From Candidatus Woesearchaeota archaeon (GTDB lineage: Archaea; Nanobdellota; Nanobdellia; Woesearchaeales; ARS49), in contig JAWADY010000002.1 of NCBI GenBank assembly GCA_038891615.1, positions 64,994-128,993 on the forward strand: a stretch of DNA of 64,000 bases, in the 5' to 3' direction. The translations under genes were made by a program, and so were the position numbers. The notes below the pieces were generated by a model, which made no database searches, was not told the DNA's origin, and saw only the letters and a program-made list of their open reading frames with translations. Below, one piece after another: positions 3 through 54,594 of this stretch (position 1 is the stretch's first letter; each line of letters starts with the position of its first letter).

Positions 3-881
3 ATGTCAAAAAACGTCTTTGCGTTTAAGAAAGCACCGCCAGAATATCCCTACTCCCCATTCCCAAAACCGCCAATATTTCCTTCTGCACCAACATACGG
101 CTATTACGGTGATATAAGTATAGTGACTGAAAAAAGACTTTCTGCGGAGCTGAGCTCATACATAGAATCAAATATCCAAAGCTGCACTGATTGGTCAAGC
201 TTTGCACAGAAAGGGATTGATGTAAAAGTTGGTAAACCATCAGCGGATGTCCTTTTTGGAGACTCTGACACAACAGTCTCGCTTAGGTGGCGAATAGAGG
301 CAAAAAGCGGCCAGGCAGAAGCGGTCATAAACAAATTTGCAGCAAGCATTCCGGTTAGAATGAAGGTTGTACGTAACTATGCTCTCGAGATAGCCTCAAA
401 TGACACCCTTTACTATGACTATGAGCCTAGCAGTGCTCCAGCAGTCCAGGTTTTCAAAAGGGTTGATGGCAAAAGCGACATAATTCAAATCACAGATACG
501 CTTTCAAAAGTTGACACAAAACCGTTTATCTTCAGGTTTGCAAGAAAGAATAGGCCTCCTGTGCTTTTCGATTCTGATATTAAATTGCGATTTAATGAAA
601 TTTTTGCTTGCCCAGGCGATGTTATAAGTTTTGATGGCAAGACATTCAAAATAACTAAACAAAATGGTGACATTCGCTTTTCTTTTGCACCAAATGCAAC
701 AGATTTTGATGAAGATTCTAGTTTATCATTTAATGTTTCTGATAGAGGTGGTGAGCCCTTTCCTTTAAGCACAACTCAGCAAATGGCAAATATTGGTAAA
801 AGAGAACTAAGAATAGAAGTCAGTGATGGTCTTGAAAAAGATTGGTATGATGCAAGCCTGACTTTAAAAACAAAATGTTAA
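3..881 (+). CDS. hypothetical protein, probably 5'-truncated by the window edge; first visible gene of the giant-surface-protein operon
   Basis: The frame is open from nt 3 to TAA at 879-881. There is no hydrophobic N-terminus after the first Met, so the true start may lie upstream of the window. The stop overlaps the next start (ATGTTAA, 875-881). No family recognised. Confidence 0.5.
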   Translation: MSKNVFAFKKAPPEYPYSPFPKPPIFPSAPTYGYYGDISIVTEKRLSAELSSYIESNIQSCTDWSSFAQKGIDVKVGKPSADVLFGDSDTTVSLRWRIEAKSGQAEAVINKFAASIPVRMKVVRNYALEIASNDTLYYDYEPSSAPAVQVFKRVDGKSDIIQITDTLSKVDTKPFIFRFARKNRPPVLFDSDIKLRFNEIFACPGDVISFDGKTFKITKQNGDIRFSFAPNATDFDEDSSLSFNVSDRGGEPFPLSTTQQMANIGKRELRIEVSDGLEKDWYDASLTLKTKC

Positions 882-6355: not shown

Positions 6356-6852
6356 GACTTGGCCAAATAGTTGGGCAAATATTTCTTTTCTTGTTGGCAA
6401 CAATTGTTTTTGTTTTTATAGTTGTTTATGGCTATCGCGCAATAGGCAACCTTGTTGCAAAAGGTGAGCAAGCAGACCTAGTGCGATTCAACAGCGAGCT
6501 CAGTTCCGCAGTTAGTGCTATATCCCTTGACTATGGCAGCGTGCGTTGCCTAGAGCTCAGCCTTCCAAAAAGATATAGAACCTTTTGTTTTGTCGGGCAG
6601 GAGCCTGACATAGGCGCACTTTCCTTGGTCAGCCCATTAATTGCAAGTGCTGTCCAGTCAGGGATTAAGCAAAATGTTTTTTTAATCCCCCCTTCACCGC
6701 TTCAACTATATCTAGAAAAGGCAACGACAAAAGCAGAGGGAGGATTTTTTTGCATAAATACAAGCGGACCAACAAATCGCTTGCTACTCAGGCTTGAAGG
6801 TGGCGCAGGAGGAATTGCAGAGCTACAAAAATGGCAAGGAGCAAGCTGTTAA
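6352..6852 (+). CDS. prepilin-like protein (short basic leader plus hydrophobic helix)
   Basis: N-terminus is MRLGQ/IVGQIFLFLLATIVFVFIVVYGY. The start overlaps the giant-gene stop (ATGA at 6352-6355). Confidence 0.6.
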   Translation: MRLGQIVGQIFLFLLATIVFVFIVVYGYRAIGNLVAKGEQADLVRFNSELSSAVSAISLDYGSVRCLELSLPKRYRTFCFVGQEPDIGALSLVSPLIASAVQSGIKQNVFLIPPSPLQLYLEKATTKAEGGFFCINTSGPTNRLLLRLEGGAGGIAELQKWQGASC

Positions 6853-7820
6853 TTCCAAAGCACAGAAAAGGCCAGATAGAAGCGCCAGTAAGTTGGATAT
6901 TCATACTTATTGCAGGAGCTGTAATCCTTCTTTTTTTCTTTTCAACAACCATTAAGTTGCGTGACATTGCAAAACAAAAGCTTTCAATAACCCTTTTGTC
7001 AAACTTAGATGCACTCATCTCTAGCTCATCCGTTGCAAAAGGTACAAGCCAGCTGCTGCCGATTTATGACCAGCAACTTGTTTTTGAATGTACACAGGCT
7101 TGTCTTTGCGAGCTTTCAGTCCTTGGCGCAAAAAAGCCATTTAAAGACAGGCTGATTTTTGCTCAGCAAAAGGTTTTTGGAAGAAATGCGCTATTTTGGG
7201 CTCTTGACTGGAAGGAGCCATTCAGGATTGCTAATTTTCTTTACATAACAGACAGCTCAAGCAAATATTGGTTGGTTGGGGATTCGAGCAGCGAACCACT
7301 TAAGACAATAAAGTTCCTCCTTCCTAAGAATCTTAGTGCGGAGTTCGTAGACTCCACCCAAAACATCAAGCCAGGAAATTTCAAGAAAAGCAGGATTGTT
7401 CTTTTTGACAAAGCACTGGATGAAAGCCTTGCAGATAGTTTTCCCAAAGCATCTGAGCTAACATTACTTGTTGTCAACACCCAGAACAAAGAGCTTAAGT
7501 GGTACAAGAGAAAAGGTAGCAAGCTGGAAGTGCTGTCAAATGAAGGGGCGGATAACTACAAAAGCATTCCCCATCTTTTGGGAGCAATTTTTAGTGACGA
7601 GCCGCAGCTTTACGCCTGCCAACAAGCAGCTTCTGAGGACAGGAAAGCGGCCATAAAAGAAATCTATGTTGCACGTGTGCAAAAATTGATGCAAATTGTG
7701 CCAGAAGAACGTGGTTGCAGCGCGCTTTACGAAGAGACGTTCAAAAACATTAACGCTCCTGAGGCGCTTGAGGAGATTAATGAGGAATTGCTAAAAAAGA
7801 GTTGTCCAACAATATACTAA
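6831..7820 (+). CDS. prepilin-like protein, 329 aa
   Basis: N-terminus is MARSKLLIPKHRKGQ/IEAPVSWIFILIAGAVILLFFF (K-G-Q-I-E class III-type motif). It overlaps the upstream gene by 22 nt. Confidence 0.65.
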   Translation: MARSKLLIPKHRKGQIEAPVSWIFILIAGAVILLFFFSTTIKLRDIAKQKLSITLLSNLDALISSSSVAKGTSQLLPIYDQQLVFECTQACLCELSVLGAKKPFKDRLIFAQQKVFGRNALFWALDWKEPFRIANFLYITDSSSKYWLVGDSSSEPLKTIKFLLPKNLSAEFVDSTQNIKPGNFKKSRIVLFDKALDESLADSFPKASELTLLVVNTQNKELKWYKRKGSKLEVLSNEGADNYKSIPHLLGAIFSDEPQLYACQQAASEDRKAAIKEIYVARVQKLMQIVPEERGCSALYEETFKNINAPEALEEINEELLKKSCPTIY

Positions 7821-7821
7821 A

Positions 7822-8352
7822 ATGGCAAACAATGCATCTCCAAGCAAAAAGGCTCAGATAAAGATGTTTGAGAATATCGCTGTCCTCGTGATATTCTTTT
7901 TTCTTCTGGCTTTTGGTACAAGCTTTTACTTTACACTTCAAAAAAGTTCCCTTCAGCGTGAAATGGAACGCATTGCGCAGCTTGGAAACATTCAGCAGGC
8001 GCTTAGGCTTACATTCTTACCAGAGCTTGACTGCTCATTTGCTGCTGTACAAACTGAAAATTGTTTTGACAGGCTTAAGTTTGATGCTCTTGCAGATCAG
8101 CTTAAACCAGGTAGCCAGCGATGGCTTGAGTACTCTGCAATCCTTGGTTTTACTAGTATAAAACTAAAGACTGTTTATTCCAGCCTCTCTCCCCCGCCTG
8201 AAGAGAAACTTCTGTACGAAAGAAAGCTGAACGCAACTGCAATTCGCACAGAGATTCCTGTCTTGATTTGTGAAAACGGTTGCGACCCGCTAAATCAAAG
8301 CTATTCCTTCGGCATCCTTGAGGTGACAAGCTATGTTAGAAGGGCAACCTGA
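7822..8352 (+). CDS. prepilin-like protein, 176 aa
   Basis: N-terminus is MANNASPSKKAQ/IKMFENIAVLVIFFFLLAF. The start lies 1 nt after the upstream stop. Confidence 0.65.
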   Translation: MANNASPSKKAQIKMFENIAVLVIFFFLLAFGTSFYFTLQKSSLQREMERIAQLGNIQQALRLTFLPELDCSFAAVQTENCFDRLKFDALADQLKPGSQRWLEYSAILGFTSIKLKTVYSSLSPPPEEKLLYERKLNATAIRTEIPVLICENGCDPLNQSYSFGILEVTSYVRRAT

Positions 8353-8854
8353 TGGCATTGCTGTGTTGAAGGGATTAAAGAGAGCAAAAGGCGGGCAAAT
8401 GGAAATAATTGGTCTAACAATCATCATTCTTCTTGTTATAATTGGGGTGCTTTTTGGAATACAGTTTGTGCTCAAGGCAAAGCCGCCCACAATTGGACGA
8501 GAGTTTAGGGAATCGCAGTACGCAGCCAACTTCCTAAGCACTCTTACAGGTACAACAAGCGCATGTAATGGTTTGAGCATCACACAACTTTTACAGAACT
8601 GCGTGACAAGGACAGGGATTGACTGTCCATCAGGAAAGGGTGCTTGTGAGGAGGTTGAGGCTCTTATAGAAACAATCCTTGATAAAACAATTGGCAAGTC
8701 GGGACAAAACAGAGCATACCAACTTATGGTAAAAGGCAGCAACATTGACATTACTAAGTCTAATCGGGGAGGATGTCCGGGCGAAAAAGAGGTTGCAGAA
8801 CACACACTTCCAACAAGAGCTGGAGTAGTTTCTATACGCCTCGAGTTGTGCTAA
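8333..8854 (+). CDS. prepilin-like protein, 173 aa, Cys-containing
   Basis: N-terminus is ...LKRAKGGQ/MEIIGLTIIILLVIIGVLF. It overlaps the upstream gene by 20 nt and is the last gene of the operon. Confidence 0.6.
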   Translation: MLEGQPDGIAVLKGLKRAKGGQMEIIGLTIIILLVIIGVLFGIQFVLKAKPPTIGREFRESQYAANFLSTLTGTTSACNGLSITQLLQNCVTRTGIDCPSGKGACEEVEALIETILDKTIGKSGQNRAYQLMVKGSNIDITKSNRGGCPGEKEVAEHTLPTRAGVVSIRLELC

Positions 8855-8856
8855 AA

Positions 8857-10827
8857 CTATTTGCTAAAAGGATTTCTCATTTGCTTTGCTACCCAGACTG
8901 GGCTAAAATCTTCATAATCATTATCAGTAAGCTGCTCGAGCTTATCCTTTTCAATGTTGTAAACAAAGATTTCGCAATCTCTGTCTTTTTGTTTCTGTCC
9001 AAAACGAAACCAAGGGCAAGCAGAAAAGGCAATGCCTTTTGAGTCTTGCGACCAAGCAATGTTGTCCTCATTTACAAAAAAATTGTTTGGAATGCTAACT
9101 TTTTTGATGCTTAGTTTTGGCCAATCCGCTATATTGACAATGGTTACAATACTGCTCCCCTTATACCTTATTGCAAAATGTTTCAAATCTGGAGAGTTAT
9201 ACATTGCTAATGCCTGGTCTGGAAGTTTTGTCACAAATTTTGGCTTGTCCACACCGTTCTTACAAGATTCTTTTCTTTTTTTCTGGCAAGAGGCTAAGTC
9301 ATAAAGGGTGGCTTTCTCGAGTGCTAGAAAGTAAAGAAGGTTTTGGCTTTCACCTTTTGGATGATAAGGACTGGCTGCGAGGCTAAAGAACAAGCCAGGC
9401 TTTGCAAAAGTCAGTGCAGTAACATAATATCCCTTTTTTTCAAAAATCTTAAGTTTGATTGGGCTTTCTGATCCAAAGATTTTATAAGCATATATCTTGC
9501 CCTTCTTCTCATTGTTGGCATAAACGAGCCAGTTAAAATCAAACCACTCAAAGGCTTCCCACTCTGATTTGTCGTCGTACCCTGTTGATAAATTCTTTAT
9601 TTTGTTCTCTTCCGTCTTTAAAAGGGGAGCGAGCCTGATAGTCTTCCAGGACTTTTCTGCAACGCATCCACATTGTGGTGAGATCTTTATTTTGTGATAA
9701 AAGGATAACCCAGAACTTTCAGCAACATCCCCAAGCTTTGGAAAGAAGTAATGTAGTTTGTTGTCTATCACCACACCAACAGTTTCTCCATCGCTGCTTT
9801 TTATTAGGTTTTTGGCTTCCTTTTTTTTAAACACAACCACATTATGCGTTTCCTTTAATGGTGACCGTGGATAAACAAAGTTTATTCCGAAGTTGTCATC
9901 TAATCGTGAAATAAAGTATATTTTCTCATCAGTGACCAATGAAGAAAGCCAGATGAAGAATGAGGCTGTTGTGACAAACGCCGACCCTAAAAACCATTTC
10001 CTGTTTTTGCGCCACCAAAGATACCTGCACGCCTTTTTAGCGCTCCATCTTTTCTTTAGATTTGTTTGAAGAAAGCCAGAAATAAGTTTGCGAAGTGGAG
10101 CTTTTTTAAGTCGTTCATATTCTCCAGAAATTATTTTTTCTCGCAACCTTTCACGCTCAGCATCCTCAAAAGGAAAGCTACCAGTTATAAGCTTGTACAG
10201 TGCAACGCCTGCCGCCCAACTATCACTTTGTTGCGATGGCATAAAGCCTTTTAGTAGTTCTGGCGCACGATAGAGCAAGCTACCATAGCAAGGGCCGTAG
10301 TGTAGCTCCTTGCTGTTCGATAGTCCGAAGTCAACAATTTTTATCTTTCCTTCAGAAAGAATGAGGTTTTCAAGGCTCAGGTCACCATGTGTAACACCTC
10401 TTGAGTGCAAAAAGTCAAGTCCTTTACAAATCTGTTCCGCGCATTCAATGAGTTGCTTTTCATCGAGTTTGCCTGCAACCTCGCTCAGCTTTCTGCCTTC
10501 CACATACTCTTCAACAATAAATGGCAGGCCAGTCTTTTCGTCTATGTTAACAAAGTAGATTTTAGCAATATGTTCATGGCCTTTGCCGCGCTCCTCACGC
10601 AACTTTGTAAGAATTTTTGCCTCGCGCTCAAATGTGCTTTCAATGCTTACATTCCTATAAGCTGGAAATGAGCGCGAATGTTTCAGAATTTTTAGTGCAA
10701 CTGTTATGCCTTGTTGAGTATCATAAGCCTTCCAAACTTCTTTAAAAGCGCCGCCACCAATCTTTTCAATGAGTCTAAACTTACCGTTATTAAAAAAAGC
10801 ATTATCCTTAAATTCTTCTTCAGCCAT
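8857..10827 (-). CDS. membrane Ser/Thr protein kinase with a predicted extracytoplasmic beta-propeller (TolB/PD40-like) domain
   Basis: Hanks kinase motifs are present: G-loop GGGAFKEV, VALK, HGDLSLENL, DFG (VDFGLS) and APE (YRAPE). One TM follows (FLGSAFVTTASFFIWLSSLV). The ~350-aa C-terminal part carries repeated IAWSQDSKGIAF / FSPVW-type blades. Confidence 0.85.
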   Translation of the reverse strand: MAEEEFKDNAFFNNGKFRLIEKIGGGAFKEVWKAYDTQQGITVALKILKHSRSFPAYRNVSIESTFEREAKILTKLREERGKGHEHIAKIYFVNIDEKTGLPFIVEEYVEGRKLSEVAGKLDEKQLIECAEQICKGLDFLHSRGVTHGDLSLENLILSEGKIKIVDFGLSNSKELHYGPCYGSLLYRAPELLKGFMPSQQSDSWAAGVALYKLITGSFPFEDAERERLREKIISGEYERLKKAPLRKLISGFLQTNLKKRWSAKKACRYLWWRKNRKWFLGSAFVTTASFFIWLSSLVTDEKIYFISRLDDNFGINFVYPRSPLKETHNVVVFKKKEAKNLIKSSDGETVGVVIDNKLHYFFPKLGDVAESSGLSFYHKIKISPQCGCVAEKSWKTIRLAPLLKTEENKIKNLSTGYDDKSEWEAFEWFDFNWLVYANNEKKGKIYAYKIFGSESPIKLKIFEKKGYYVTALTFAKPGLFFSLAASPYHPKGESQNLLYFLALEKATLYDLASCQKKRKESCKNGVDKPKFVTKLPDQALAMYNSPDLKHFAIRYKGSSIVTIVNIADWPKLSIKKVSIPNNFFVNEDNIAWSQDSKGIAFSACPWFRFGQKQKDRDCEIFVYNIEKDKLEQLTDNDYEDFSPVWVAKQMRNPFSK

Positions 10828-10878: not shown

Positions 10879-11763
10879 TTATCTTGTTTTCTGGATAACA
10901 GATGGTAAAGCAAGCGCAGGAAGCTGTATGCTCAAGTCGACTATAGAAGCAAGGTGAATGTTTTTCCAGCCGTAACGACGTATTTCCTCAAAAATTCTCG
11001 AAGCTTCGGTTGCCGTTTCCTGTTTTGCATCGAAGACAAATCTGTAGCAAGCGTCAAAAAGCTTGGCAGCCTTTTCATATTGTTTTACAATCTCCTGTTC
11101 AGGAACCGCGCGCTGCTTGACTATCTCTGCAGCAAGATACTTGCACTCGTCACCAATTCTTTCCACACTCCAGACAATGACTGCCTTACGCATAGCCTCT
11201 AGGTGTTCTGATATGACATTTTTTGCAAGATACCTCATGCAGTAATGTGCAAGCCTATTCACATCAATATCGCGCTGCTCTAGATGTTCAAGAGCAGTGT
11301 AATCCCAATTTCGAATAGCTTCTACCGAATCCTCAAGCATTCCTTTTACAAGAAGAAACAACCTCCGATAAAGTGCTGGAAATTCATCTTTTATCTGACC
11401 AGCAACATCACGCAAAATGCAATAGTTGCTCCTTTGTTCAACAGTCTCAAAACCAATTAGCTCAATGAGGGCTTTTTTGACGCGCTGAGGAGTTTCTGCT
11501 TCGAAGTTTGTGATTTTTATTTCATCATAGCCATCCTCATAAAGCCTGACAATAAGCCTTGGCAAGAGGACTCCTGCCTCAGGCGCACTTATTTCTTTGC
11601 TTTTGAAGACCTTTTGAGTGCTTGTTGGAGAAAGCGAAATAAAACCTGGTTGTTCTGACATTTCAATCTCATCTCCTTTCTTTATTCCATACTTTCTTGC
11701 CCATTTCGCAGGAAGACTTACCACAAGCGTTTGCTTGGAAAGCTGAATGACCTTTCTTCTCAT
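10879..11763 (-). CDS. AbrB/SpoVT-domain plus PhoU-like domain transcriptional regulator
   Basis: The N-terminus VIQLSKQTLVVSLPAKWARKYGIKKGDEIEM is a swapped-hairpin AbrB motif. The helical C-terminal ~200 aa resemble PhoU-type repeats. Confidence 0.75.
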   Translation of the reverse strand: MRRKVIQLSKQTLVVSLPAKWARKYGIKKGDEIEMSEQPGFISLSPTSTQKVFKSKEISAPEAGVLLPRLIVRLYEDGYDEIKITNFEAETPQRVKKALIELIGFETVEQRSNYCILRDVAGQIKDEFPALYRRLFLLVKGMLEDSVEAIRNWDYTALEHLEQRDIDVNRLAHYCMRYLAKNVISEHLEAMRKAVIVWSVERIGDECKYLAAEIVKQRAVPEQEIVKQYEKAAKLFDACYRFVFDAKQETATEASRIFEEIRRYGWKNIHLASIVDLSIQLPALALPSVIQKTR

Positions 11764-11910: not shown

Positions 11911-12393
11911 ATGTCTGACTTTCAAAAAAAGGATTTGGTAATAATAGCCCATCTCAGGCAGAATGCGCGGATGAAGCTAACAGCAATGTCAAGAAAAACA
12001 GCACTCCCTGTCTCAACAATTTATGACAGGTTACAACTTCATGAAGGAAAGACAATCCTAAAGCATTCGTCTCTCATTGACTTTTCAAGACTTGGCTTTA
12101 GTGCAAGAGTGAATGTTCTCTTCAAACTTGGAAAAACTGATAAACAGGAATTTGTAGCATTCCTATCAAAACATCAGAATGTCAACAGCCTTTACAGGAT
12201 TAATAATGGTTTTGATTTCCTTGCAGAGTGCATTTTTAAGAACATACGAGAACTAGAAGACTTTTTCGAACAACTTGATGCAAGGTTTGACATAAAGCAT
12301 AAAGAGGTTTACCATGTTATTGACGAGCTAAAGCGTGAAGCCTTTTTATCAGACCCTCAATTGATTGAGCTTGCAGGAATTGAAGCAGCCTAA
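11911..12393 (+). CDS. Lrp/AsnC-family transcriptional regulator
   Basis: An HTH N-terminus (DLVIIAHLRQNARMKLTAMSRKTALPVSTIYDRL) is followed by a RAM-like C-terminal domain. The track start at 11902 is a GTG inside the SD site; the ATG at 11911 has proper spacing. Confidence 0.8.
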   Translation: MSDFQKKDLVIIAHLRQNARMKLTAMSRKTALPVSTIYDRLQLHEGKTILKHSSLIDFSRLGFSARVNVLFKLGKTDKQEFVAFLSKHQNVNSLYRINNGFDFLAECIFKNIRELEDFFEQLDARFDIKHKEVYHVIDELKREAFLSDPQLIELAGIEAA

Positions 12394-12493: not shown

Positions 12494-12501
12494 TTTAAAT
12501 A
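12494..12501 (+). promoter_or_regulatory. TATA box (TTTAAATA) for the 14-gene prepilin-like operon
   Basis: TTTAAATA lies 43-50 nt upstream of the ATG at 12544. GAGGTG at 12533-12538 is a well-spaced SD site. Confidence 0.5.
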
Positions 12502-12543
12502 CTCTGTACTTACTTTTCTTGAAAAACAAAACGAGGTGTTGAG

Positions 12544-12798
12544 ATGTCAAAAGGTCAAGGCATTTCAATTAATGTTATCATAATAGCTGCGATTGCACTG
12601 CTTGTTCTTGTTGTTCTTTCTGTTATGTTCATAGGCAGGATAGGACTCTTTGGAGTTAAGAGTGTTTCTTGCACAGAACAGGGAGGAACATGTTCTGTTG
12701 ATGTCTGCCCAGCAGGGACAAGGGAGTACACACCTTGGAGGTGCCCTGATACTCCTGAGGGGGCAAAGCAGCGCTGCTGCGTGGCAATAGGGGTGTAA
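12544..12798 (+). CDS. small 6-Cys prepilin-like protein (84 aa), candidate major pilin, paralog 1
   Basis: Sequence is MSKGQG/ISINVIIIAAIALLVLVVLSVMFIGRIGLFG followed by a 6-Cys globular tail ending ...QRCCVAIGV. Confidence 0.75.
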   Translation: MSKGQGISINVIIIAAIALLVLVVLSVMFIGRIGLFGVKSVSCTEQGGTCSVDVCPAGTREYTPWRCPDTPEGAKQRCCVAIGV

Positions 12799-12809
12799 GT
12801 GAATTTTCA

Positions 12810-13079
12810 ATGGCAAAAGCGCAAGGGCTGCCAATAAACACAATCATTATCGTTGCGCTAGCACTTGTTGTTCTTTTAGTCATTGCAGCCATTTTTACTG
12901 GTCGTATACAGCTTTTTGGAAGAGCGCTAAGCAACTGCCCAAAAGGAGAGGGGAAGTGGTGCACAGACAACCCTTCGGATTGCGCAGCTGGCAACGCAGC
13001 AGCAAGTCCGCTAAAAAATTGCAACGAAGATGCTGACCCTGAACCAGAAGGGAGCTATTGTTGCATACCATTGGCATGA
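12810..13079 (+). CDS. small 6-Cys prepilin-like protein (89 aa), paralog 2
   Basis: Sequence is MAKAQG/LPINTIIIVALALVVLLVIAAIFTGRIQLFG with a 6-Cys tail ending ...GSYCCIPLA. Confidence 0.75.
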   Translation: MAKAQGLPINTIIIVALALVVLLVIAAIFTGRIQLFGRALSNCPKGEGKWCTDNPSDCAAGNAAASPLKNCNEDADPEPEGSYCCIPLA

Positions 13080-13366
13080 GAATGGGCAAAATGAGCGGAA
13101 AAAAGGGTGCTGAAGCCATTTGGTACATAATCGCGCTTGTCATTGGGCTAATAGTTCTTGTTGTGCTGGTAGCATTATTTACAGGAAAGGTAAAGCTGTT
13201 TGGCAAGGCAGGAGAAGAAATCGAAAAAGGTGTTCGTGGAAATCTTTGTTTTGAGCAGGGTTTTTGTGAAGCGGGCACTGCTTGTCCTCCTGGTTCAACA
13301 GCAATCCCGCGCCCTGCTGCTGGCTGGACAGATTGCACAGGGATTTGTTGCAAGCAAGTTGGATAA
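13076..13366 (+). CDS. small 6-Cys prepilin-like protein (~96 aa), paralog 3
   Basis: Sequence is MRMGKMSGKKG/AEAIWYIIALVIGLIVLVVLVALFTGKVKLFG with a 6-Cys tail ending ...CTGICCKQVG. The start is chosen at the ATGA overlap (13076). The track start 13058 and the ATGs at 13082 and 13091 are alternatives. Confidence 0.7.
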   Translation: MRMGKMSGKKGAEAIWYIIALVIGLIVLVVLVALFTGKVKLFGKAGEEIEKGVRGNLCFEQGFCEAGTACPPGSTAIPRPAAGWTDCTGICCKQVG

Positions 13367-13398
13367 AGTTTTTATACGCAAGAGCCACTTGATTTTTT

Positions 13399-13512
13399 AT
13401 GCACAAAAGAGGCGTTGAAAAAAGCACTTTGTTATACCTCATCCTAATCCTTATCTTTCTTGCGCTTGCAGCCTATATTCTTGTGAGAATTGCTGGGAGG
13501 ATTTTTGGATGA
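13399..13512 (+). CDS. 37-aa mini prepilin-like ORF (not in the supplied track)
   Basis: My translation is MHKRG/VEKSTLLYLILILIFLALAAYILVRIAGRIFG*. The stop overlaps the next start (ATGA at 13509-13512), and the orientation and operon are the same. Confidence 0.5.
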   Translation: MHKRGVEKSTLLYLILILIFLALAAYILVRIAGRIFG

Positions 13513-14225
13513 GCCTGCTCATTGTCAGAAGGAAGGGAATAACAGAAACAGGATTAGTGGCAATAATCCTTGTCCTTGCCTCTGGCATTGTTCTTGGAGC
13601 TCTTGTCTATCAGTTTACTGTTAAGGGGAAGCAGGTTGGCTCTATCGAGCTTTGCAGACAGAATGTGCTAACTGCTAGCAAAGTTGTAGCGCTTGGCAAA
13701 GCAGATATTTGGCCAATCACCAACTGCTTTACAGAAGACCTTGGCAAACTTCCAGAAAAAGAAGAAGAAGCCATTACTCTGATTGCCGAGGGTATTAGGA
13801 AGTGCTGGTACATGTGGGGCGAAGGAAAGCTAACTCCATGGAGCTCTACATGGCTATCAAGAAACATCATGTGTCATGTTTGTACGATGTTTGAGCCAAG
13901 CGCAGAAGTGAGTATTGAAAAGCTTCATGGTTGGATGAGGACTCACAACATTCCTGGCAAAGAATTAACCTACTATGACTTTTTGAAAGAAGGCTACATC
14001 CCTTTCATCTATCCAGCACTTGAAGAAGAAGCCAAAGCCAAAAAAGTTGACCTCACAAAAGGAATGAAATGGGCTGTCTTTTATGCCTATGGAACGCGCG
14101 CGGATTGGCTAAGATTTCCCCTCATTGGTGGACTTGTGCTTGAAGAACCAAAACAAGGCGTTGCCTTCCTGCCGACAAATGAACTCGGAGGCATATGTAC
14201 ATATACTACGATAAAACTCAAATGA
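13509..14225 (+). CDS. prepilin-like protein, 238 aa (CW..GEG..C.VC family, paralog a)
   Basis: N-terminus is MSLLIVRRKG/ITETGLVAIILVLASGIVLGALVY. The motif ...IRKCWYMWGEGKLTPW...MCHVCTMF is shared with the next gene. Confidence 0.7.
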   Translation: MSLLIVRRKGITETGLVAIILVLASGIVLGALVYQFTVKGKQVGSIELCRQNVLTASKVVALGKADIWPITNCFTEDLGKLPEKEEEAITLIAEGIRKCWYMWGEGKLTPWSSTWLSRNIMCHVCTMFEPSAEVSIEKLHGWMRTHNIPGKELTYYDFLKEGYIPFIYPALEEEAKAKKVDLTKGMKWAVFYAYGTRADWLRFPLIGGLVLEEPKQGVAFLPTNELGGICTYTTIKLK

Positions 14226-15145
14226 AAAGGGCGCAAGTAACAACACAGACACTCTTGGTAGTGCTCGTGCTTTTACTCGTAGCAGCTGTCATCTTTATTT
14301 CTTTTCAGACAAGACTCTTTGGCTTAGCAGAAGCCAAAAGTGCAAAGGATGTTTGCAAAACTTCTGTCTATGCCAATGCGCTGCTTGGAAGAAGTGTTGG
14401 AATCTTTTCTTCGGATATAAAATGTCCAACTCAGTATCTTCAGATAGACAATAGTGATGTTGCACATGCAAAGTTTGAGATTGCAAAAGCTCTGTCAGAT
14501 TGTTGGGAACAATTTGGAGAAGGCAGGCTTGAGCTTTTTTCTGGAGAAGGTGTTTTTTGTTCCGTATGTCATTTGATAACTTTTAAGCACAAAGAAAAAG
14601 CAATAAGCGGGCTTTTAGACTATCTTGCAACTAACAAAAAACCCCTTACTGACAAAAGCTATCTTGATTATCTAACAAGCTATCACACTTCAGGAAGCGA
14701 GGTTCTTAAGGCATATGCAGCTGAAAAGCTCCCGCCTGACATTCTTGACCCATCGCGAGGCAACACCTATGCAACAATCTTCTACTATGTCAAGGGTAAA
14801 GACCATGTGAAGGATGTTATTGAAAGAGCCCAAGCAGCAGCACCTGGCATTGGGCTTGAAGCACTTGGTATCGGATTGATAAAGGCAGGCAGTGCAACAG
14901 CTGGCTTGATTTCAGCAACCGGCATTGGTGCGCCTCTAGGTGTAGTTGTTGCAAAGGTCTCAACAATTGTCGGCGGAGTTTTGATTGTTGGCGGAGCAGG
15001 CTATGCCCTCCTCGCTGGTTGGTTCGGCGGAGTCCCTGTAGAATTCCTCTCACAAGTACGCCTCGAGCCTTACAACGAGCAAACGCTTAAAAACCTCGGA
15101 TGCCAAATCCTGCCTGCAGCTGAAAAAGCAGAGGTTGGAAGGTGA
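14222..15145 (+). CDS. prepilin-like protein, ~307 aa (paralog b) with a Gly-rich hydrophobic C-terminal region
   Basis: The start is taken at the ATGA overlap (14222): MKRAQ/VTTQTLLVVLVLLLVAAVIFISF. It carries the motif ...LSDCWEQFGEGRLELF...FCSVCHLITF. The C-terminal segment is GIGLEALGIGLIKAGSATAGLISATGIGAPLGVVVAKVSTIVGGVLIVGGAGYALLAGWFGG. Confidence 0.7.
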   Translation: MKRAQVTTQTLLVVLVLLLVAAVIFISFQTRLFGLAEAKSAKDVCKTSVYANALLGRSVGIFSSDIKCPTQYLQIDNSDVAHAKFEIAKALSDCWEQFGEGRLELFSGEGVFCSVCHLITFKHKEKAISGLLDYLATNKKPLTDKSYLDYLTSYHTSGSEVLKAYAAEKLPPDILDPSRGNTYATIFYYVKGKDHVKDVIERAQAAAPGIGLEALGIGLIKAGSATAGLISATGIGAPLGVVVAKVSTIVGGVLIVGGAGYALLAGWFGGVPVEFLSQVRLEPYNEQTLKNLGCQILPAAEKAEVGR

Positions 15146-15279
15146 TGAAAAAAGGCATATCCCGCGAGGCATTTGTTTACATACTCTTGGCACTTATTGC
15201 AATCCTCATTGGAGTAATCTTGATAATTTTTTGGGGAGGCGGGGCAGAAAAGGTCCTTAAGTCTCTTGGTTTGGGATAG
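15145..15279 (+). CDS. 44-aa mini prepilin-like ORF (not in the supplied track)
   Basis: My translation is MKKG/ISREAFVYILLALIAILIGVILIIFWGGGAEKVLKSLGLG*. The start overlaps the upstream stop by 1 nt (TGATG). Confidence 0.5.
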   Translation: MKKGISREAFVYILLALIAILIGVILIIFWGGGAEKVLKSLGLG

Positions 15280-15284
15280 CTCAA

Positions 15285-15641
15285 ATGGACAAAAAAGCTG
15301 TTGCAATAGAAACAATAGTCATCCTTCTCCTTGCACTTGTTGCTCTCCTTTTCTTTACAGTCCTTGGAGGAAAGCAGCTTCAATTGGGCAAGAAAATAAG
15401 CTTTTTCATGCCGGGCTGCCCAAAGGGTGTTTTAATAACCACAGAATGTCCATGTGATGGCCAAAAGATAAGTTCAGGTTATTGCTGTGATTTTGGACCA
15501 AGCCAAAAGCCTTGCTTTTGCGTAGAGCGAAATGTTAATAAGTGCGAGGATTACAAAAAGCAAGAGGATTGTGTAAGCAATCCTTGCCAAGTTCAAACTG
15601 CTTGCACCTTTGAACAAGGTGTTTGCAAAAGGGCTGGTTAA
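15285..15641 (+). CDS. Cys-rich prepilin-like protein, 118 aa (12 Cys)
   Basis: N-terminus is MDKKA/VAIETIVILLLALVALLFFTVLGG. The tail is CPKGVLITTECPCDGQKISSGYCCDFG... Confidence 0.7.
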   Translation: MDKKAVAIETIVILLLALVALLFFTVLGGKQLQLGKKISFFMPGCPKGVLITTECPCDGQKISSGYCCDFGPSQKPCFCVERNVNKCEDYKKQEDCVSNPCQVQTACTFEQGVCKRAG

Positions 15642-15645
15642 ATAA

Positions 15646-16071
15646 ATGGCAAAAAAAGGGGTAAGTGGAATACAGGTCGTCATAGCACTTTTGATTGGCA
15701 TCATAGTGCTCTATGTTGTTGTGGCTTTTATGCAAGCACAGTTCAAGAAGGCTGGAAAGAGTATCGAGGAAATAACTCCTTCCACAATCAGCTTTGCGCT
15801 GCAAGGCTGCAGGCTCCAAGCCGCACGAGGTTTTTCTGATGCAGATAAGGATGGATATCCCGACTTTTGTGATGTCTGCGAAGGCGGTGATGACGGAAAG
15901 CACAGCGATGCTGACTGGGTTCCAGATGATTGTGATGCGCATGAAAAAACAAAAGGGCTTCCTGCAAAGGAATGTGGTTGTGAAAAGCCAGAAATGGATT
16001 CTGAAGGCAGGCTGATAAAGAGCTGTGGGAGGCTTCTTTCAATCGAGCCATTTAAGTGCGCGAAAAAATGA
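15646..16071 (+). CDS. prepilin-like protein, 141 aa, with an acidic D-rich/Cys segment
   Basis: N-terminus is MAKKG/VSGIQVVIALLIGIIVLYVVVAF. The segment DADKDGYPDFCDVCEGGDDGKHSDADWVPDDCD looks like a Ca-binding site. Confidence 0.7.
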   Translation: MAKKGVSGIQVVIALLIGIIVLYVVVAFMQAQFKKAGKSIEEITPSTISFALQGCRLQAARGFSDADKDGYPDFCDVCEGGDDGKHSDADWVPDDCDAHEKTKGLPAKECGCEKPEMDSEGRLIKSCGRLLSIEPFKCAKK

Positions 16072-16088
16072 ATTTGGTAAAATGAAAA

Positions 16089-16949
16089 ATGAGCAAAAGG
16101 AAAGGCCAGGAAGAAGTTGGAAGGATGCTTTGGGAACTTGTTGCGCTGATACTGGCAGTAACTGTTATCATTGGAGGGATATTGTTTTTTGGAAGGGCAT
16201 TTGGATTTATTGGTGAGAGCAAAGAGGAACAGGACACAATCTCAAGCTTTTACAGCCTTGCAACAAAACTAAACGAACTGGCGCTGCTTTCAGAGTCATT
16301 CGTTCATGACAGGCTACCACTTTTTATTGGGGAAGGATTTGTAATTGTTGGCTTTGACAAAGCTGGAGATATTTCTGTCAATGGTTGCAGCGATGAAACA
16401 CATCTTGGAGTTCCAGCTACTGACCTCATCCCAAAGCCAGAGTTCTGTGGCGAGTTTGCTTGCATATGCCTCTATTCTGGCATTAGCGAAGAAGTCGGCG
16501 AGAAGCAGCCAATTTCTTGTGCCAAAATTTTCGCTGACAGATTGATTGGCTTGAGTAGTGCGTATCTTGAAAAAAACTATCCCTCTTTTGAGTCTTTTTG
16601 GAAAAACGCAATGGGCTCTCGTAGGGATAAGCCAGAACTACAAAGGTTCATGGTAACAGGGACAGAGCCTTTTAGCACTCTTCTCGAAAAAGACTATCCT
16701 CTTTTCCCAAGCTTTGAAAGCTACCCCTATACCTATTTTGTTCTTCATGGTGAGTGTGAAAACTGGTGGTTTGATGCCAACTTTGGCACACAAAGCCTCT
16801 ATCTTGAAAAAGTGAGGATAAAAGACAGGAACTATTTATTTATCACCGCAGACATCGAGGACTTTGTAAACAAAAGGGTTGCTGCAATAAAGGATTGGCT
16901 AGAGAAGCAAAAGAGTCAAGAGAAAGCCGAGGGAGGGCTGGTTGGTTGA
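16089..16949 (+). CDS. prepilin-like protein, 286 aa
   Basis: N-terminus is MSKRKGQ/EEVGRMLWELVALILAVTVIIGGILFF. Confidence 0.65.
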   Translation: MSKRKGQEEVGRMLWELVALILAVTVIIGGILFFGRAFGFIGESKEEQDTISSFYSLATKLNELALLSESFVHDRLPLFIGEGFVIVGFDKAGDISVNGCSDETHLGVPATDLIPKPEFCGEFACICLYSGISEEVGEKQPISCAKIFADRLIGLSSAYLEKNYPSFESFWKNAMGSRRDKPELQRFMVTGTEPFSTLLEKDYPLFPSFESYPYTYFVLHGECENWWFDANFGTQSLYLEKVRIKDRNYLFITADIEDFVNKRVAAIKDWLEKQKSQEKAEGGLVG

Positions 16950-17784
16950 AATGGTTGTGATTGGCAAGCGAGCCGTTGTTCATCCAGTTGCTCTGACAAT
17001 TGCAGAGCTTATTTTAGCCGCAATTATTGTCCTTGCAATGTACAATTTTGCCTCAAGGGCAAGAGAGCCTGGAAGGCTTGAAAAAGAGTTTGTTGCAAAA
17101 GACCTTGGCTTGCTGCTTGACGCCGTTTCCGTTGGCCAAGGGAGTTACTATTTGGTTTACACATCACCAGCCCTTCATCAAGATTTCAAGATTTCTGCAG
17201 GCGCCCACGAGGTTGTTGTTGATGGCTCAAGGCAGCCCTACGCATCTGGGCGTATAGAAATAAAAGGAGATTCCTTTGGAACAGATAAACTTGTGATCTG
17301 GTCTGAAACTGGAATTCTTGGCACGCCTTCAGCAGTCAAAGGTCACCTGCTACAGCTTCCTTGCGAAAGCCCACTGTCTTTTTCAACTGATAGGCAGCTT
17401 GCGGTAGCTGCTGATGATGGTGCCAAACAACTTGTTGAAAGACTTTTTGTCAAGGACTTAGGGAAAAGGCTGTTGTCAAATGATGAGAAAGGCGCAAGTG
17501 CGCTATTAAAAATTTTCACAGGAACAAAAAATGGGACAGCGAAGGCATATTTTTGGAAGGATGATAAGTCAGCAAGGTCGCTTGCATGCGCCCTTTTGAA
17601 CAGCATTGTCGCTTTTGAAGGAACCAATTCAGCCCTTCTTCTTCCGCTTAATCCTGAGCTTGCACCAAAGCGTTTTGCAGAGCTTGAGAAACAAAAGCCA
17701 GCTGTCTTCCTCGAGCTAGGCCCAGACCTTATTTCAAGCCCTGAACTTGCTCAGGCACTTTATGGTGGTGTTCGAAGTGGCTGA
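16942..17784 (+). CDS. prepilin-like protein, ~277-280 aa
   Basis: N-terminus is (MVE)MVVIGKRA/VVHPVALTIAELILAAIIVLAM. The track start is TTG at 16942; the ATG at 16951 lies 1 nt after the upstream TGA. Confidence 0.6.
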   Translation: MVEMVVIGKRAVVHPVALTIAELILAAIIVLAMYNFASRAREPGRLEKEFVAKDLGLLLDAVSVGQGSYYLVYTSPALHQDFKISAGAHEVVVDGSRQPYASGRIEIKGDSFGTDKLVIWSETGILGTPSAVKGHLLQLPCESPLSFSTDRQLAVAADDGAKQLVERLFVKDLGKRLLSNDEKGASALLKIFTGTKNGTAKAYFWKDDKSARSLACALLNSIVAFEGTNSALLLPLNPELAPKRFAELEKQKPAVFLELGPDLISSPELAQALYGGVRSG

Positions 17785-18325
17785 AAGGCAACAAGCAAAC
17801 ATTTTTAGCAAAAAGGCTCAACTCCTTAGCCATCACACAAAATTTCTTTTCATAAGCCTTCCATTTGTTATTATCTCCGCTCTTGCGTTGTTTCTTCTCG
17901 CAAACAGGTTTCTTGAAATAAGAGTAAATACCTTTCCCCTCGAGGCAAACGCATTTGTTGAAAGCATACTCTACTCATCTGCTGGGCTGGCTTATGTTGA
18001 CAATGTAACCGGGATTACCTATTCTGGAATCATAGACATCACAAAACTTGAAGAAAAGGACATTGGAAAAAGGTTGTCTAAGGCTTTTAACTATGGTGAA
18101 GGGCAAAGTTACCTTGCAGCAAAGCTTCTGATTGGTGATAGGACAATTTTCTATAACAACGAACCAGAAGCACCTTGGTATGACCGCTGGAAACCAAAGG
18201 TTGGGCTCAAGGGTGCTGGCGGAGTGCAATCGGTTACTTTTGTTAAATATGTGCTCATCAAAAATGGAAGTATGTTAGAACCTGCAACCGTTTACATAGA
18301 GTTGCTCAAGCCTGGTGAGGGCTAA
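17747..18325 (+). CDS. prepilin-like protein, ~180-192 aa (start uncertain)
   Basis: N-terminus is ...IFSKKAQ/LLSHHTKFLFISLPFVIISALALFLLA. Candidate starts are 17747, ATG 17762 and GTG 17777, and all overlap the upstream gene end (17784). Confidence 0.55.
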   Translation: MLRHFMVVFEVAERQQANIFSKKAQLLSHHTKFLFISLPFVIISALALFLLANRFLEIRVNTFPLEANAFVESILYSSAGLAYVDNVTGITYSGIIDITKLEEKDIGKRLSKAFNYGEGQSYLAAKLLIGDRTIFYNNEPEAPWYDRWKPKVGLKGAGGVQSVTFVKYVLIKNGSMLEPATVYIELLKPGEG

Positions 18326-18900
18326 TGGTAATAAATGGAAGAAAAGGCGTTGTTGGGGAGCTATTAGTTGCATTTCTCTCTTTTGCAGGCCTTGCTCTTA
18401 CAATCCTACTCTTCACTTTCATATTCTCTCCAGCAGACTTTCCTGGTCCTCAAACTTTGACCGTGCTTAATGAAGGAGAAACAGATGGCAAACTTAGACT
18501 GCTGACCATTCTTCGCTCACCAGTTGTTTTTGATGGGGAGAAAATAGATTTTGCAGACATGATTGCACTTTGGCAAGGAAAGCAAGAGCCGCTCGAAAGC
18601 ATTCTTCACTCAGAGCTTGAAAAGCTGCTTAATAACAAGCTAAGTTATGAGTTCGAGCATGCTGGTGTCAAATTTGTGCGCACTTATGCTTTTGCCATTT
18701 ATAGCATAAAAGACGATTTAAGTCGTGGCAAAGAACTAATGAAAGTAGAGGCAAGCGGCTATTCAGGAGGTAAAGAAATAGCCTCAACTCATGTTGCATT
18801 AAAGGATGGCAATGTGCTTGAGGTTGTGCTATTTTCAAGCGCGCAAAAAAAGCCATCCAAAACTCCTGTTTCGAGCGCTTCATCCATACCTATAAAATAA
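18325..18900 (+). CDS. prepilin-like protein, 191 aa
   Basis: N-terminus is MVINGRKG/VVGELLVAFLSFAGLALTILLFTFIF. There is a TAATG start/stop overlap at 18323-18327. Confidence 0.65.
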   Translation: MVINGRKGVVGELLVAFLSFAGLALTILLFTFIFSPADFPGPQTLTVLNEGETDGKLRLLTILRSPVVFDGEKIDFADMIALWQGKQEPLESILHSELEKLLNNKLSYEFEHAGVKFVRTYAFAIYSIKDDLSRGKELMKVEASGYSGGKEIASTHVALKDGNVLEVVLFSSAQKKPSKTPVSSASSIPIK

Positions 18901-18901
18901 A

Positions 18902-19870
18902 ATGGTCAAATCAAACAAACGCGCAACAATCTTTTTTGAACCACTAATACTTTTGGGGTTAATCGTTGCTCTTAGCATCGCAGCTATTTCTGTTAGCCAA
19001 AAAAGGTCCTCTTTTGGAACAATTGGCAGACCAGCTGCTGACCTTCTTAATTACAATGACTTTGGTGAAGAACTTCTTTTTAAGGTTGAACAAGCAGCGA
19101 GGTTTGCAGTTCGCGATGCGCTTTATGAGTTGGGTGCAAATGGTTGGAGTGCTGAAGGTCCAAACTTAGGTTGTGATAGCCAGCCAATTGGCAAGCCTTT
19201 GCTTATCGAGAGCTTTCCTACACCACAGGAGATTGTTGAAGAACTAACAAAAATTTCTGATAGGAAGCTTAGGGCTTATTCGCTCAGGGCTTCGCAGCTC
19301 CTTGGTCTTGGGAGGTTGGGCTTCCACTTGCCAACAGGTATTGAATATGAGTGGTTTGTTGAGCACTCTGGTGGGCTGTTGAGAGTGAGTGGCATTGCTG
19401 ACAAGCCAGTTACCTTCTCATTTAGCTCATACGAGGTAGGTAAACCAACACTCTACGGCCAGCCGCTGCCACTGCCAACTGCTTCAGTTGTTTTTATTCC
19501 TCTTGAACGTCCAAAACAGCCAGAAGCCCTGCTCTTGCTTTATGGCAATTATTCGATAAGGCCGTCCTTCACAGTCTGGATAGATTACGACCTTTTCGGC
19601 GTCTATGAAAGAATAAAAGAAGGCGTTGAGCAACTCAAAACAATCATTCAGGAAAACAGGGCTCTTGGTTTTGAGGTGACAGACCTGGCGCTCAAAAACA
19701 AAGTCAAGGAGCTGAATTCTGCGCAGGGAGAGCTTGTTTGGCAAGTCCCTAAGAGGACAAGTGAAGATCCGGCTATCTACTCTTTTGTTATTTCTCATAA
19801 GAAGCAGCTTTTAGGATGCAGTCAGCCTATTCAAATAAGGTTTGCGATGAGAATTCCATTAGCTGCTTGA
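18902..19870 (+). CDS. prepilin-like protein, 322 aa; last gene of the operon
   Basis: N-terminus is MVKSNKRA/TIFFEPLILLGLIVALSIAAISV. The start lies 1 nt after the upstream stop. Confidence 0.65.
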   Translation: MVKSNKRATIFFEPLILLGLIVALSIAAISVSQKRSSFGTIGRPAADLLNYNDFGEELLFKVEQAARFAVRDALYELGANGWSAEGPNLGCDSQPIGKPLLIESFPTPQEIVEELTKISDRKLRAYSLRASQLLGLGRLGFHLPTGIEYEWFVEHSGGLLRVSGIADKPVTFSFSSYEVGKPTLYGQPLPLPTASVVFIPLERPKQPEALLLLYGNYSIRPSFTVWIDYDLFGVYERIKEGVEQLKTIIQENRALGFEVTDLALKNKVKELNSAQGELVWQVPKRTSEDPAIYSFVISHKKQLLGCSQPIQIRFAMRIPLAA

Positions 19871-42753: not shown

Positions 42754-42867
42754 GTGAAGTCCTCCCACCTCTTTGAGCAAAGGTTTTTAGCACTTTGACA
42801 TGGTTACACAATTTATTATCCTGCTAAGCAAAACCTTATTAAAGCAAATTTATAAGCTTTTGCAAAA

Positions 42868-43368: not shown

Positions 43369-43470
43369 TGACTTGCCCTAGAGCAGCTTCTCACTCCAAT
43401 CTTCAAACCAGAAACCTTTATAAAAGCCACATTCCAAATTCGTTCAAGAGCAAGCTTAAAAGAGGAAAAG

Positions 43471-51385: not shown

Positions 51386-51431
51386 TTTTCCTTTAAATTA
51401 AAGAACTCTTTTAAAGTTTTCCAGTCGTTCG

Positions 51432-53374: not shown

Positions 53375-53399
53375 GCACTGCTCTGAAACAAAGAAAAGG

Positions 53400-53407
53400 T
53401 TTATATA
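53400..53407. promoter_or_regulatory. TATA box (TTTATATA), possibly bidirectional (translin gene leftward, six-gene operon rightward)
   Basis: It lies 26-33 nt from the GTG at 53374 on the minus strand and 45-52 nt upstream of the ATG at 53452. AGAGAGGT at 53433-53440 is a candidate SD site. Confidence 0.45.
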
Positions 53408-54579: not shown

Positions 54580-54594
54580 AAGAGCTAGTGAAAT

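Follow-up and report, generated by a model that had tools for sequence, protein, structure and literature searches.

A conserved cluster of genes with class III-like N-termini in Woesearchaeota, a candidate type IV filament locus

The gene run and its N-terminal signature

The subject of this report is a run of 14 tightly packed open reading frames (ORFs), all on the forward strand between positions 12544 and 19870 of a 64-kb stretch of archaeal DNA, here called the window, meaning the whole stretch analyzed. The window matches, letter for letter, a part of the 344-kb contig JAWACO010000001.1 (GCA_038896715.1, Candidatus Woesearchaeota archaeon), and identical copies of the cluster proteins are found on several other assemblies. 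The neighboring genes in the window are archaeal housekeeping genes, such as those for RadA, RPA, ribosomal protein S2, and several aminoacyl-tRNA synthetases, and the GC content is even along its length (~0.43). An origin from a mobile element or a virus was considered and rejected, because the composition is uniform and the chromosomal synteny with RPA is kept across species.

The ORFs, named P01 to P14 in their order, lie where an earlier reading of the letters alone, hereafter the sequence-only reading, had placed them, and 13 of the 14 are called independently in the NCBI record of the same contig. The uncalled one is P04, which is likely a gene missed by the annotation; tiny class-III-like ORFs occur at its position in many related loci. 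With the NCBI starts, the spacing between the genes goes from -23 to +32 nt; of the -8 to +32 nt given previously, the upper end holds, whereas the lower end does not, owing to the choice of the P12 start. The TATA box and Shine-Dalgarno site that had been noted at 12494-12538 can indeed be read on the forward strand, as a TATA-like box, TTTAAATA, at 12494-12501 and the putative ribosome-binding sequence GAGGTG at 12533-12538, 5 nt ahead of the ATG at 12544. A separate A/T-rich box stands ahead of RPA, the next gene after P14, so that the 14 genes are probably transcribed together as a single unit. A search with Rfam found no Rfam elements in the cluster region, and a scan for bacterial promoters and terminators, whose models are not applicable to archaea, gave no enrichment.

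The encoded proteins range from 37 to 322 amino acids (aa) and many are rich in Cys, as the sequence-only reading had it, with counts that go from 0 to 12 and are all even. The run opens with three mini-pilins of six Cys each, P01 (12544-12798, 84 aa, N-terminus MSKG/QGISINVIII, with the slash marking the putative cleavage site), P02 (12810-13079, 89 aa), and P03 (13091-13366, 91 aa), which are mutually paralogous (E 1e-15 to 1e-8) and of which P01 is the candidate for the major subunit. In 21 mini-pilin sequences taken across genomes, conservation peaks in the N-terminal 35 residues, the Gln at position +1 being invariant, as would be expected for the helix of a filament core. A match of P01 to beta-defensins (E 0.0045) was dismissed as a coincidence of the Cys pattern. 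P04 (13399-13512, 37 aa) and P07 (15145-15279, 44 aa) are micro-pilin-like and have no Cys, and P04 is devoid of a head domain. Between them lie the paralogs P05 (13509-14225, 238 aa) and P06 (14222-15145, 307 aa), each with six Cys, all conserved, and a common CW..GEG...C..C motif. P06 carries in addition a hydrophobic, Gly-zipper-like hairpin at residues ~207-271, ahead of the last conserved Cys, that P05 lacks; one P06 relative matches the Pfam family Gly-zipper_YMGG. In a pilin, a second element of this kind that inserts into the membrane is unexpected.

The second half of the run is more diverse. P08 (15285-15641, 118 aa) has a head with 12 Cys, and P09 (15646-16071, 141 aa) has eight Cys. 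P10 (16089-16949, 286 aa, six Cys), P11 (16951-17784, 277 aa, two Cys), P12 (17762-18325, 187 aa, no Cys), P13 (18325-18900, 191 aa, no Cys), and P14 (18902-19870, 322 aa, two Cys) complete the set, all with a pilin-like N-terminus, although that of P12 (KKA/QLLSHHTKFLF) makes it the weakest class III candidate. Once the N-terminal helix is removed, the ten larger families are mutually unrelated by hhalign, so that the pilin-like N-terminus is their sole common feature.

All 14 proteins, together with four encoded at 6352-8854 and named U1 to U4, have a leader of 4-20 residues, rich in Lys and Arg and ending in Gly or Ala, followed by a hydrophobic helix. The motif [KR][GA], placed no more than 10 residues ahead of the hydrophobic segment, is present in 17 of these 18 proteins, the exception being U1, which reads R-L-G; when the leaders were shuffled (5000 trials), the mean was 8.1 matches out of 18 and the maximum 15. 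Outside both clusters, the non-overlapping ORF set of the window holds eight ORFs with an N-terminal hydrophobic segment, among them the giant protein at 875-6355 and one that is probably a spurious antisense ORF, and only one of the eight matches. In 19 related loci, ORFs that fit the pattern number 191 on the cluster strand versus 13 on the opposite one; among the 191, the residue at position -1 is Gly in 123 and Ala in 68, and Gln stands at +1 in 77 (40%), as it does in 9 of the 18 proteins of the window. At the level of sequence, this N-terminal pattern is genuine, occurs far more often than chance would allow, and has been kept in evolution. It supports the assignment of these N-termini to the archaeal class III (prepilin-like) type that had been proposed at the outset, in that they fit a short charged leader ending in Gly or Ala and a hydrophobic stretch.

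The same proteins depart from the Epd/DUF361 signature. A Glu at +5 is not conserved in them, none of the 18 matches PF04021 (DUF361) in Pfam, and the combination typical of Epd/DUF361 proteins (+1 Gln, +5 Glu, QxSxExxxL) is absent from the pilin-like proteins of the window. Judged by eye, several N-termini, the KGQG-type mini-pilins among them, would presumably fail the FlaFind pattern.

Another explanation is that the products are signal-anchor (type II) membrane proteins of the usual, uncleaved kind, belonging to an envelope complex particular to this lineage and with no relation to type IV filaments, and that the motif is a by-product of positive-inside leaders. Leaders that are rich in Lys, Arg, Gly, and Ala already give 8 matches out of 18 upon shuffling, the homologs of P12 vary, and neither a pilin-family match nor, in the 84 kb scanned, a peptidase was found. 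This explanation would have to accommodate a Gly or Ala that directly follows Lys or Arg in 17 of the 18 window proteins as well as in the 191 cluster-strand ORFs of the relatives, with Gln at +1 in 40% of the latter, and the low score of the other hydrophobic N-termini of the window (one in eight). It would also leave proteins of 37-44 aa that consist of leader and helix alone, which make little sense as anchors, and a type IV filament ATPase, described below, without other obvious substrates in the window. Hence, we regard it as improbable.

The wider island and its conservation

The 14-gene run is only part of a larger island, a point that the sequence-only reading missed, even though its count of 18 such genes in 20 kb, U1 to U4 included, is correct; at least two more lie just upstream of the window. 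The first of these encodes a P09 paralog of 143 aa (L026 5094-5525; coordinates upstream of the window are those of L026), and the second U0, a class-III-like protein of 395 aa (L026 gene 8820-10007, forward strand) with no Pfam match; its N-terminus, MVGIKISKKG/QLTVAIILGLGILIVV, is encoded ahead of the window start, and its C-terminal part occupies window positions 3-881. P09 and its upstream paralog both show a DxDxDG..D..CD motif, read by eye, that resembles thrombospondin type 3 calcium-binding (TSP3) repeats such as those of the giant protein described next; Pfam is silent for P09.

Directly after U0, at 875-6355 on the forward strand, is the gene for a giant, Cys-rich surface protein of 1826 aa with a Sec-type signal, TSP3 and Ig-like repeats (Pfam TSP3_bac, 8e-21, and Big_13), and a C-terminal membrane anchor. 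It is a candidate adhesin, and homologs of it are found upstream of U1 in 10 related loci. The four pilin-like genes that follow, all on the forward strand, are U1 (6352-6852, MRLG/QIVGQIFLF, in which position -2 is Leu here and Lys or Arg in the homologs), U2 (6831-7820, HRKG/QIEAPVSWIFILI, 329 aa), U3 (7822-8352, SKKA/QIKMFENIAVLVI), and U4 (8333-8854, RAKGG/QMEIIGLTIII). The idea that U1-U4 and P10-P13 are duplicated modules was rejected, because hhalign finds no two families related without the N-terminal helix.

Three genes separate the U and P groups in the window. Two are on the reverse strand: a Ser/Thr protein kinase of 656 aa (8857-10827) with one transmembrane segment and a large C-terminal domain, which has a homolog in the same place in one related locus only (L010), and a protein with AbrB/MazE and PhoU domains (10879-11763, by Pfam), a possible regulator with a homolog in the same place in seven related loci. 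The kinase could act as a sensor for this system. The third, on the forward strand directly upstream of the operon (11911-12393), is assigned by Pfam to the Lrp/AsnC family of transcription regulators; it stands in the same place ahead of the mini-pilins in eight related loci and probably regulates the operon. Further out, at L026 3375-8818, are genes for three surface proteins, a lipoprotein of 510 aa with an LAGC lipobox and Ig-like repeats, a secreted protein of 734 aa that has a repeat-rich N-terminal region and the same Cys-rich C-terminal domain, and a secreted protein of 340 aa. As these precede the pilin-like genes, the whole can be described as a surface-protein island of ~26 kb.

The island is not peculiar to this genome. 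One genome per species was scanned with the P01 motif, which gave 18 loci (L008-L025), and another locus (L005) was found through a P06 homolog with 26% identity. The set is found again, in the same order, in 18 further species-level genomes, which are metagenome-assembled genomes (MAGs) of Woesearchaeota, Nanoarchaeota, and "Nanoarchaeia", some of them evidently mislabeled. It consists of the giant Cys-rich protein, U1-U4, one to four mini-pilins, a micro-pilin of 35-58 aa, P05, P06, a second micro-pilin, variable small Cys-rich proteins, P10-P13, and then either P14 or a larger protein. By iterated profiles, mini-pilins are present in all loci and the P05/P06 family in 17-19, while U1, U2, U3, and U4 are found in 12, 14, 15, and 15 loci, respectively, and P10, P11, P12, P13, and P14 in 12, 12, 11, 7, and 3. 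The U genes run straight on into the P genes in distant relatives, whereas in the window and its nearer relatives the PhoU/AbrB and Lrp/AsnC genes lie between them, joined by the kinase in the window and L010. The flanks are kept as well: Lrp immediately precedes the mini-pilins in 8 loci, and RPA immediately follows the cluster in 7.

Conservation of the gene order in related MAGs was one of the tests on which the sequence-only reading had staked its own claim, and the order is kept in L005 and L008-L025. Its description of the operon as exceptionally large fares less well: the genes are many, but 13-17 class-III-like ORFs per locus, the number in the most fully sampled loci, are the norm in this lineage, and the Epd cluster of Methanococcus already has 11 genes. 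As for the suggestion of a symbiotic archaeon with a small genome, the part that the present data cover, a DPANN-type archaeon, agrees with the origin of the sequence from a Candidatus Woesearchaeota MAG.

Beyond these loci, an index-free search recovered 3,615 representatives of the P05/P06 family at 50% identity in metagenomes, 359 of them at E <=1e-30, and all the named members are Woesearchaeota hypothetical proteins. Word-indexed searches found only 3 homologs with full-length P06 and 2 with the P11 alignment, a low yield due to the hydrophobic N-termini, which swamp the word index; with a trimmed-domain query, 14 were recovered. Nine contigs that carry the cluster, L019 (JAFCCF010000001.1), L008, L009, L010, L013, L015, L020, L021, and L025, are labeled "Candidatus Aminicenantes bacterium" or "uncultured Methanosarcinales archaeon", and are probably mis-binned or mislabeled MAGs.

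Murein-hydrolase modules and a candidate assembly machinery

A second point missed initially is that, in the relatives, murein-hydrolase domains are found on pilin-like N-termini. Among 149 cluster proteins from 18 loci, the Pfam scan detected only five members with SLT, two with Peptidase_M23, two with GDSL (both below the curated Pfam cut-off), one with Amidase_3, and one each with TPM, FlgD_ig, CHU_C, and Gly-zipper. Most of the domains that can be recognized are thus of murein-hydrolase type. The SLT proteins have 445-1180 aa and class-III-like N-termini, keep the catalytic E-S motif, and occupy the last cluster position in L005, L018, L020, L023, L024, and L025. P14, which holds this position in the window, and its L010 ortholog share the N-terminal module of the SLT proteins (probability 95.8%, E 7e-9) and, weakly, the C-terminal one (E 0.003). 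The SLT domain itself, with its E-S ... GLMQ ... AYNxG motifs, is missing from both P14 and the L010 ortholog, as the whole insert is absent.

P11 presents a related case. Its homolog in L025 is a bona fide Amidase_3 (PF01520, 1.4e-16), which also matches PDB amidases, and the P11 family, window member included, aligns with it end to end (289 columns; hhalign probability 98.9%, E 2e-17); used by itself, the family profile retrieves no amidase from the PDB. The His/Glu/His zinc ligands are not found in the P11 of the window, which reads AADDG and KIFTG in place of DPGHG and SLHVG of L025, and it is presumed to be a pseudo-enzyme. Finally, two relatives of P10 have a weak, sub-threshold GDSL/SGNH match at their C-terminus, which is absent from P10 itself.

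Murein-hydrolase-type domains at the P11, P14, and, less clearly, P10 positions of the relatives suggest that the ancestral device probably engages bacterial walls. The ancestral system would thus tether cell-wall-degrading domains to pilin-like helices, and in this genome, where these domains appear deleted or catalytically dead, they would at most bind or act structurally. In this regard, earlier work described large SLT proteins together with a module of 51 unknown families that occur together and are confined to Woesearchaeota and Pacearchaeota (PMC8204110), predation on bacteria has been inferred (PMC9723730), and Sec or Tat signals are reported in only 32% of archaeal peptidoglycan hydrolases, leaving 68% without (PMC12352652). 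None of these three papers, nor the 2026 census of type IV filaments, links such hydrolases to class III signals or to a pilin cluster.

Machinery of the type IV filament kind is encoded in the same window, 20 kb from the cluster. On the reverse strand, at 40483-42780, is the gene for a filament/secretion ATPase of 765 aa with a long N-terminal extension (Pfam T2SSE, 1.5e-12), which matches afGspE (2OAP, 5.5e-24), CpaF (1e-19), and FlaI (1e-10) in the PDB, and in NCBIfam the TadA family (1e-31) and FlaI (7e-31), both below the model cut-offs, followed by BasE (2e-12) and ComGA (7e-10). Adjoining it on the same strand (38265-40454) is the gene for a polytopic membrane protein of 729 aa, with ~8 predicted transmembrane helices and two soluble loops of ~140 aa each, that has no family or PDB match and is, by position and topology, a candidate for a TadC/FlaJ-type platform. 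The presence of this pair supports the earlier suggestion of a filament or pseudopilus-based machine, and archaeal pilin sets are often encoded apart from their ATPase/TadC pair (PMC4858521). Divergent from the ATPase, at 42868-44184 on the forward strand, are two ORFs for coiled-coil/Pro-rich proteins (166 and 237 aa) with no Pfam match above threshold, which are possible accessory or regulatory partners.

Two further explanations can be weighed. For the Sulfolobus sugar-binding proteins, a bindosome-type assembly by proteins of the Bas system has been proposed, and by analogy the class III N-termini of our cluster could merely anchor binding proteins, pseudo-enzymes here and enzymes in the relatives, in a surface display without a long filament; a variant of this idea is a short pseudopilus-like stalk or raft that might form at the site of contact with a partner cell. 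Ten unrelated globular heads with only the N-terminus in common, enzyme-type modules on class-III-like N-termini in the relatives, and the BasE match would all suit such a display, and class III (SPIII) proteins have been argued to functionalize type IV filament machineries widely (bioRxiv 10.64898/2026.04.22.720090). The ATPase, however, is nearer to TadA and FlaI than to BasE, and three tiny-headed paralogs with an extremely conserved N-terminal helix, along with head-less subunits of 37-44 aa, suit a filament core and have no obvious use in display, which makes this arrangement unlikely.

The other explanation is a competence-type pseudopilus, like ComG of Gram-positive bacteria, that would take up DNA or nutrients for a scavenging lifestyle. 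DPANN archaea do rely on scavenged nucleotides (PMC8204110), murein hydrolases could free the contents of a prey (PMC9723730), and the ATPase has its weak ComGA match. This match is far weaker than those to TadA and FlaI, neither the window nor the related loci examined contain ComEA-, ComEC-, or DprA-like genes, and adhesion is the function suggested by the many heads and the giant adhesin-like protein, so that we consider uptake very improbable.

Other features of the window can be listed briefly. At 53344-56806 on the forward strand is an uncharacterized array of six consecutive ORFs, for which the precomputed Pfam record of the source lists no family: three for paralog-like polytopic membrane proteins (53344-54003, 54004-54579, and 54595-55158) and three for soluble proteins of 166-203 aa (55168-55779, 55780-56280, and 56267-56806). 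Next to it on the same strand, at 56876-56959, Rfam detects an 84-nt tRNA (57.7 bits) that is missing from the ARAGORN output and runs into the listed start of ORF 56915-57712; possibly this is an archaeal tRNA with an intron. At 50075-52739, on the reverse strand, two adjacent paralogous genes encode class II aminoacyl-tRNA synthetases of the Asp/Asn/Lys type (436 and 435 aa).

A candidate filament for cell-cell attachment

Taken together, the sequence signature, its conservation and synteny, the ATPase, and the domain homologies lead us to read the cluster as a conserved, lineage-specific (Woesearchaeota/Nanoarchaeota) super-cluster of subunits for a type IV filament (TFF) that would serve in cell-cell attachment, with a probability of roughly 0.6. 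The 14 genes are the larger part of this super-cluster. The likely function is attachment to another cell, and the hydrolase ancestry points to bacterial walls.

We infer a mechanism along the following lines. The products would be inserted in the membrane through their N-terminal helix, and an A24-type prepilin peptidase encoded elsewhere would cut the short K/R-rich leader after Gly or Ala, so that about half of the mature proteins would begin with Gln, as the EppA substrates of Methanococcus do. The TadA/FlaI-like ATPase (40483-42780) and its polytopic neighbor could then extract and polymerize the subunits, with the disulfide-knotted mini-pilins P01-P03, possibly together with the head-less P04 and P07, as the bulk of the filament. 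The ten larger unrelated proteins, U0-U4, and the giant TSP3-repeat protein may provide the minor or tip subunits and the adhesin, with each subunit retaining only the common pilin-like N-terminus. The adjacent Lrp regulator would control the operon.

A number of results weigh against this proposal. None of the 18 pilin-like proteins has a meaningful Pfam match (E <=0.1), to pilin and archaellin models or otherwise; the eight cluster proteins tested against NCBIfam match nothing there, pilin models included; and the family profiles of P01, P05/P06, P10, P11, and P12 find nothing among PDB sequences, solved pilins included. In the AlphaFold2 (AF2) model of P06 (predicted local distance difference test, pLDDT, 66.6; predicted template modeling score, pTM, 0.64), a helix of 58 residues (2-59) leads into beta strands and short helices. 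Such a long helix at the N-terminus would suit a pilin; the model as a whole has no significant match to any solved structure, solved pilins included. The single-sequence model of P11 is unusable (pLDDT 37). The extra hydrophobic segments of P06 are unusual for a pilin, and the homologs of P12 often lack the [KR][GA] motif. Regarding the machinery, the assignment of the 729-aa protein as a platform has no sequence support, and the ATPase/platform pair is within 10 kb of the cluster in none of the 19 loci, so that its functional link with the cluster is drawn by inference only. Lastly, no A24 prepilin peptidase was found in 84 kb (the window and 10 kb beyond each end), in a Peptidase_A24 scan that covered the window ORFs >=265 aa, most of the shorter ones, and the called genes of the 10-kb flanks, with some small or polytopic ORFs at 53344-58930 read by eye only.

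As the sequence-only reading had anticipated, no described system matches: the cluster belongs to no Pfam or NCBIfam family, and no paper in the literature searched describes it. It is best filed as an archaeal TFF in no defined pilin family, closest in its workings to the Epd/Tad-like pili of Methanococcus. In Methanococcus maripaludis, the EppA substrates have leaders of 5-13 aa that end in Gly and are followed by Gln at +1, and the major pilin has 74 aa, with larger minor pilins (PMC3875500); the Epd genes form an 11-gene cluster, and there are about ten pilin-like genes genome-wide (PMC3875500; bioRxiv 10.64898/2026.04.22.720090). The Epd pili, or archaeal TFF "system 1", resemble the present system in their short leaders ending in Gly with frequent +1 Gln, in a very small major pilin (74 aa versus 84-91 aa for the candidates here) next to minor pilins of 130-300 aa, in the many pilin-like genes per genome with a multi-gene cluster as one transcription unit (here a presumed one), and in an ATPase of the TadA/FlaI clade. 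They differ in that the window proteins have no DUF361/Class_IIIsignal match and no conserved +5 Glu, and no EppA-type peptidase is found in the 84 kb scanned; the 14-20 pilin-like genes are contiguous rather than scattered, and their heads are disulfide-rich. In addition, the ATPase/platform pair is 20 kb off, with a single 729-aa membrane protein versus two platform genes, and a giant adhesin candidate and modules derived from murein hydrolases are associated with the cluster.

Other comparisons are more distant. The giant protein with U1-U4 recalls the bacterial FimU-PilVWXE-PilY1 set of type IVa pili and GspH-K of type II secretion, in which at least four minor pilin-like genes lie beside a very large non-pilin surface protein, and unrelated globular modules on a common pilin N-terminus are also known from bacterial minor-pilin/tip complexes and modular pilins. 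There is no sequence or detectable fold relation with them, the kinds of head are many more here, and the leader is of the archaeal class III rather than the G/F(T/S)LxE type. With the Sulfolobus bindosome (Bas) and other SPIII binding proteins, the cluster shares functional proteins with class III signals and a TFF ATPase/platform encoded separately; it differs in that its cargo does not consist of substrate-binding proteins tied to ABC transporters, it includes mini- and micro-pilins, and the similarity to BasE is weak. The large SLT proteins of Woesearchaeota and Pacearchaeota ("module 98", PMC8204110; PMC9723730) come from the same lineage, and it is such SLT proteins that stand at the last cluster position and whose N-terminal module P14 has; in those two papers, pili, class III signals, and the gene cluster are not mentioned, and in the window P14 has no SLT domain and P11 no zinc ligands.

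A more far-reaching version of the filament proposal can be entertained only tentatively, as it is more doubtful than probable. According to it, the cluster would encode an undescribed Woesearchaeal organelle, a type IV filament with many minor subunits that are, or derive from, murein hydrolases, and with a giant adhesin, by which DPANN archaea would dock onto bacteria and open their cell wall. If so, the hydrolase set would comprise a lytic transglycosylase, an M23 peptidase, an amidase, and possibly an SGNH esterase, whose catalytic parts would have decayed into binding modules in this genome. This would account for the "large SLT proteins" and for much of the dark proteome peculiar to Woesearchaeota and Pacearchaeota, and many peptidoglycan hydrolases of archaea would then be exported by way of class III signal peptides, a route so far unrecognized.

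Few DPANN archaea are as widespread as the Woesearchaeota, of which, to our knowledge, none has been cultured. For these organisms, the cluster is a concrete, conserved, and testable candidate for a contact apparatus, and it gives a common N-terminal logic to about ten uncharacterized protein families. The P01 and P05/P06 families can serve as marker genes of the system in metagenome surveys, and the small disulfide-rich pilins are suited to structural work. Finally, the Woesearchaeal murein transglycosylases noted earlier (PMC8204110, PMC9723730) are now placed inside a pilin-like operon, and class III signals may serve some of those archaeal peptidoglycan hydrolases (68%) in which no Sec or Tat signal is recognized (PMC12352652).

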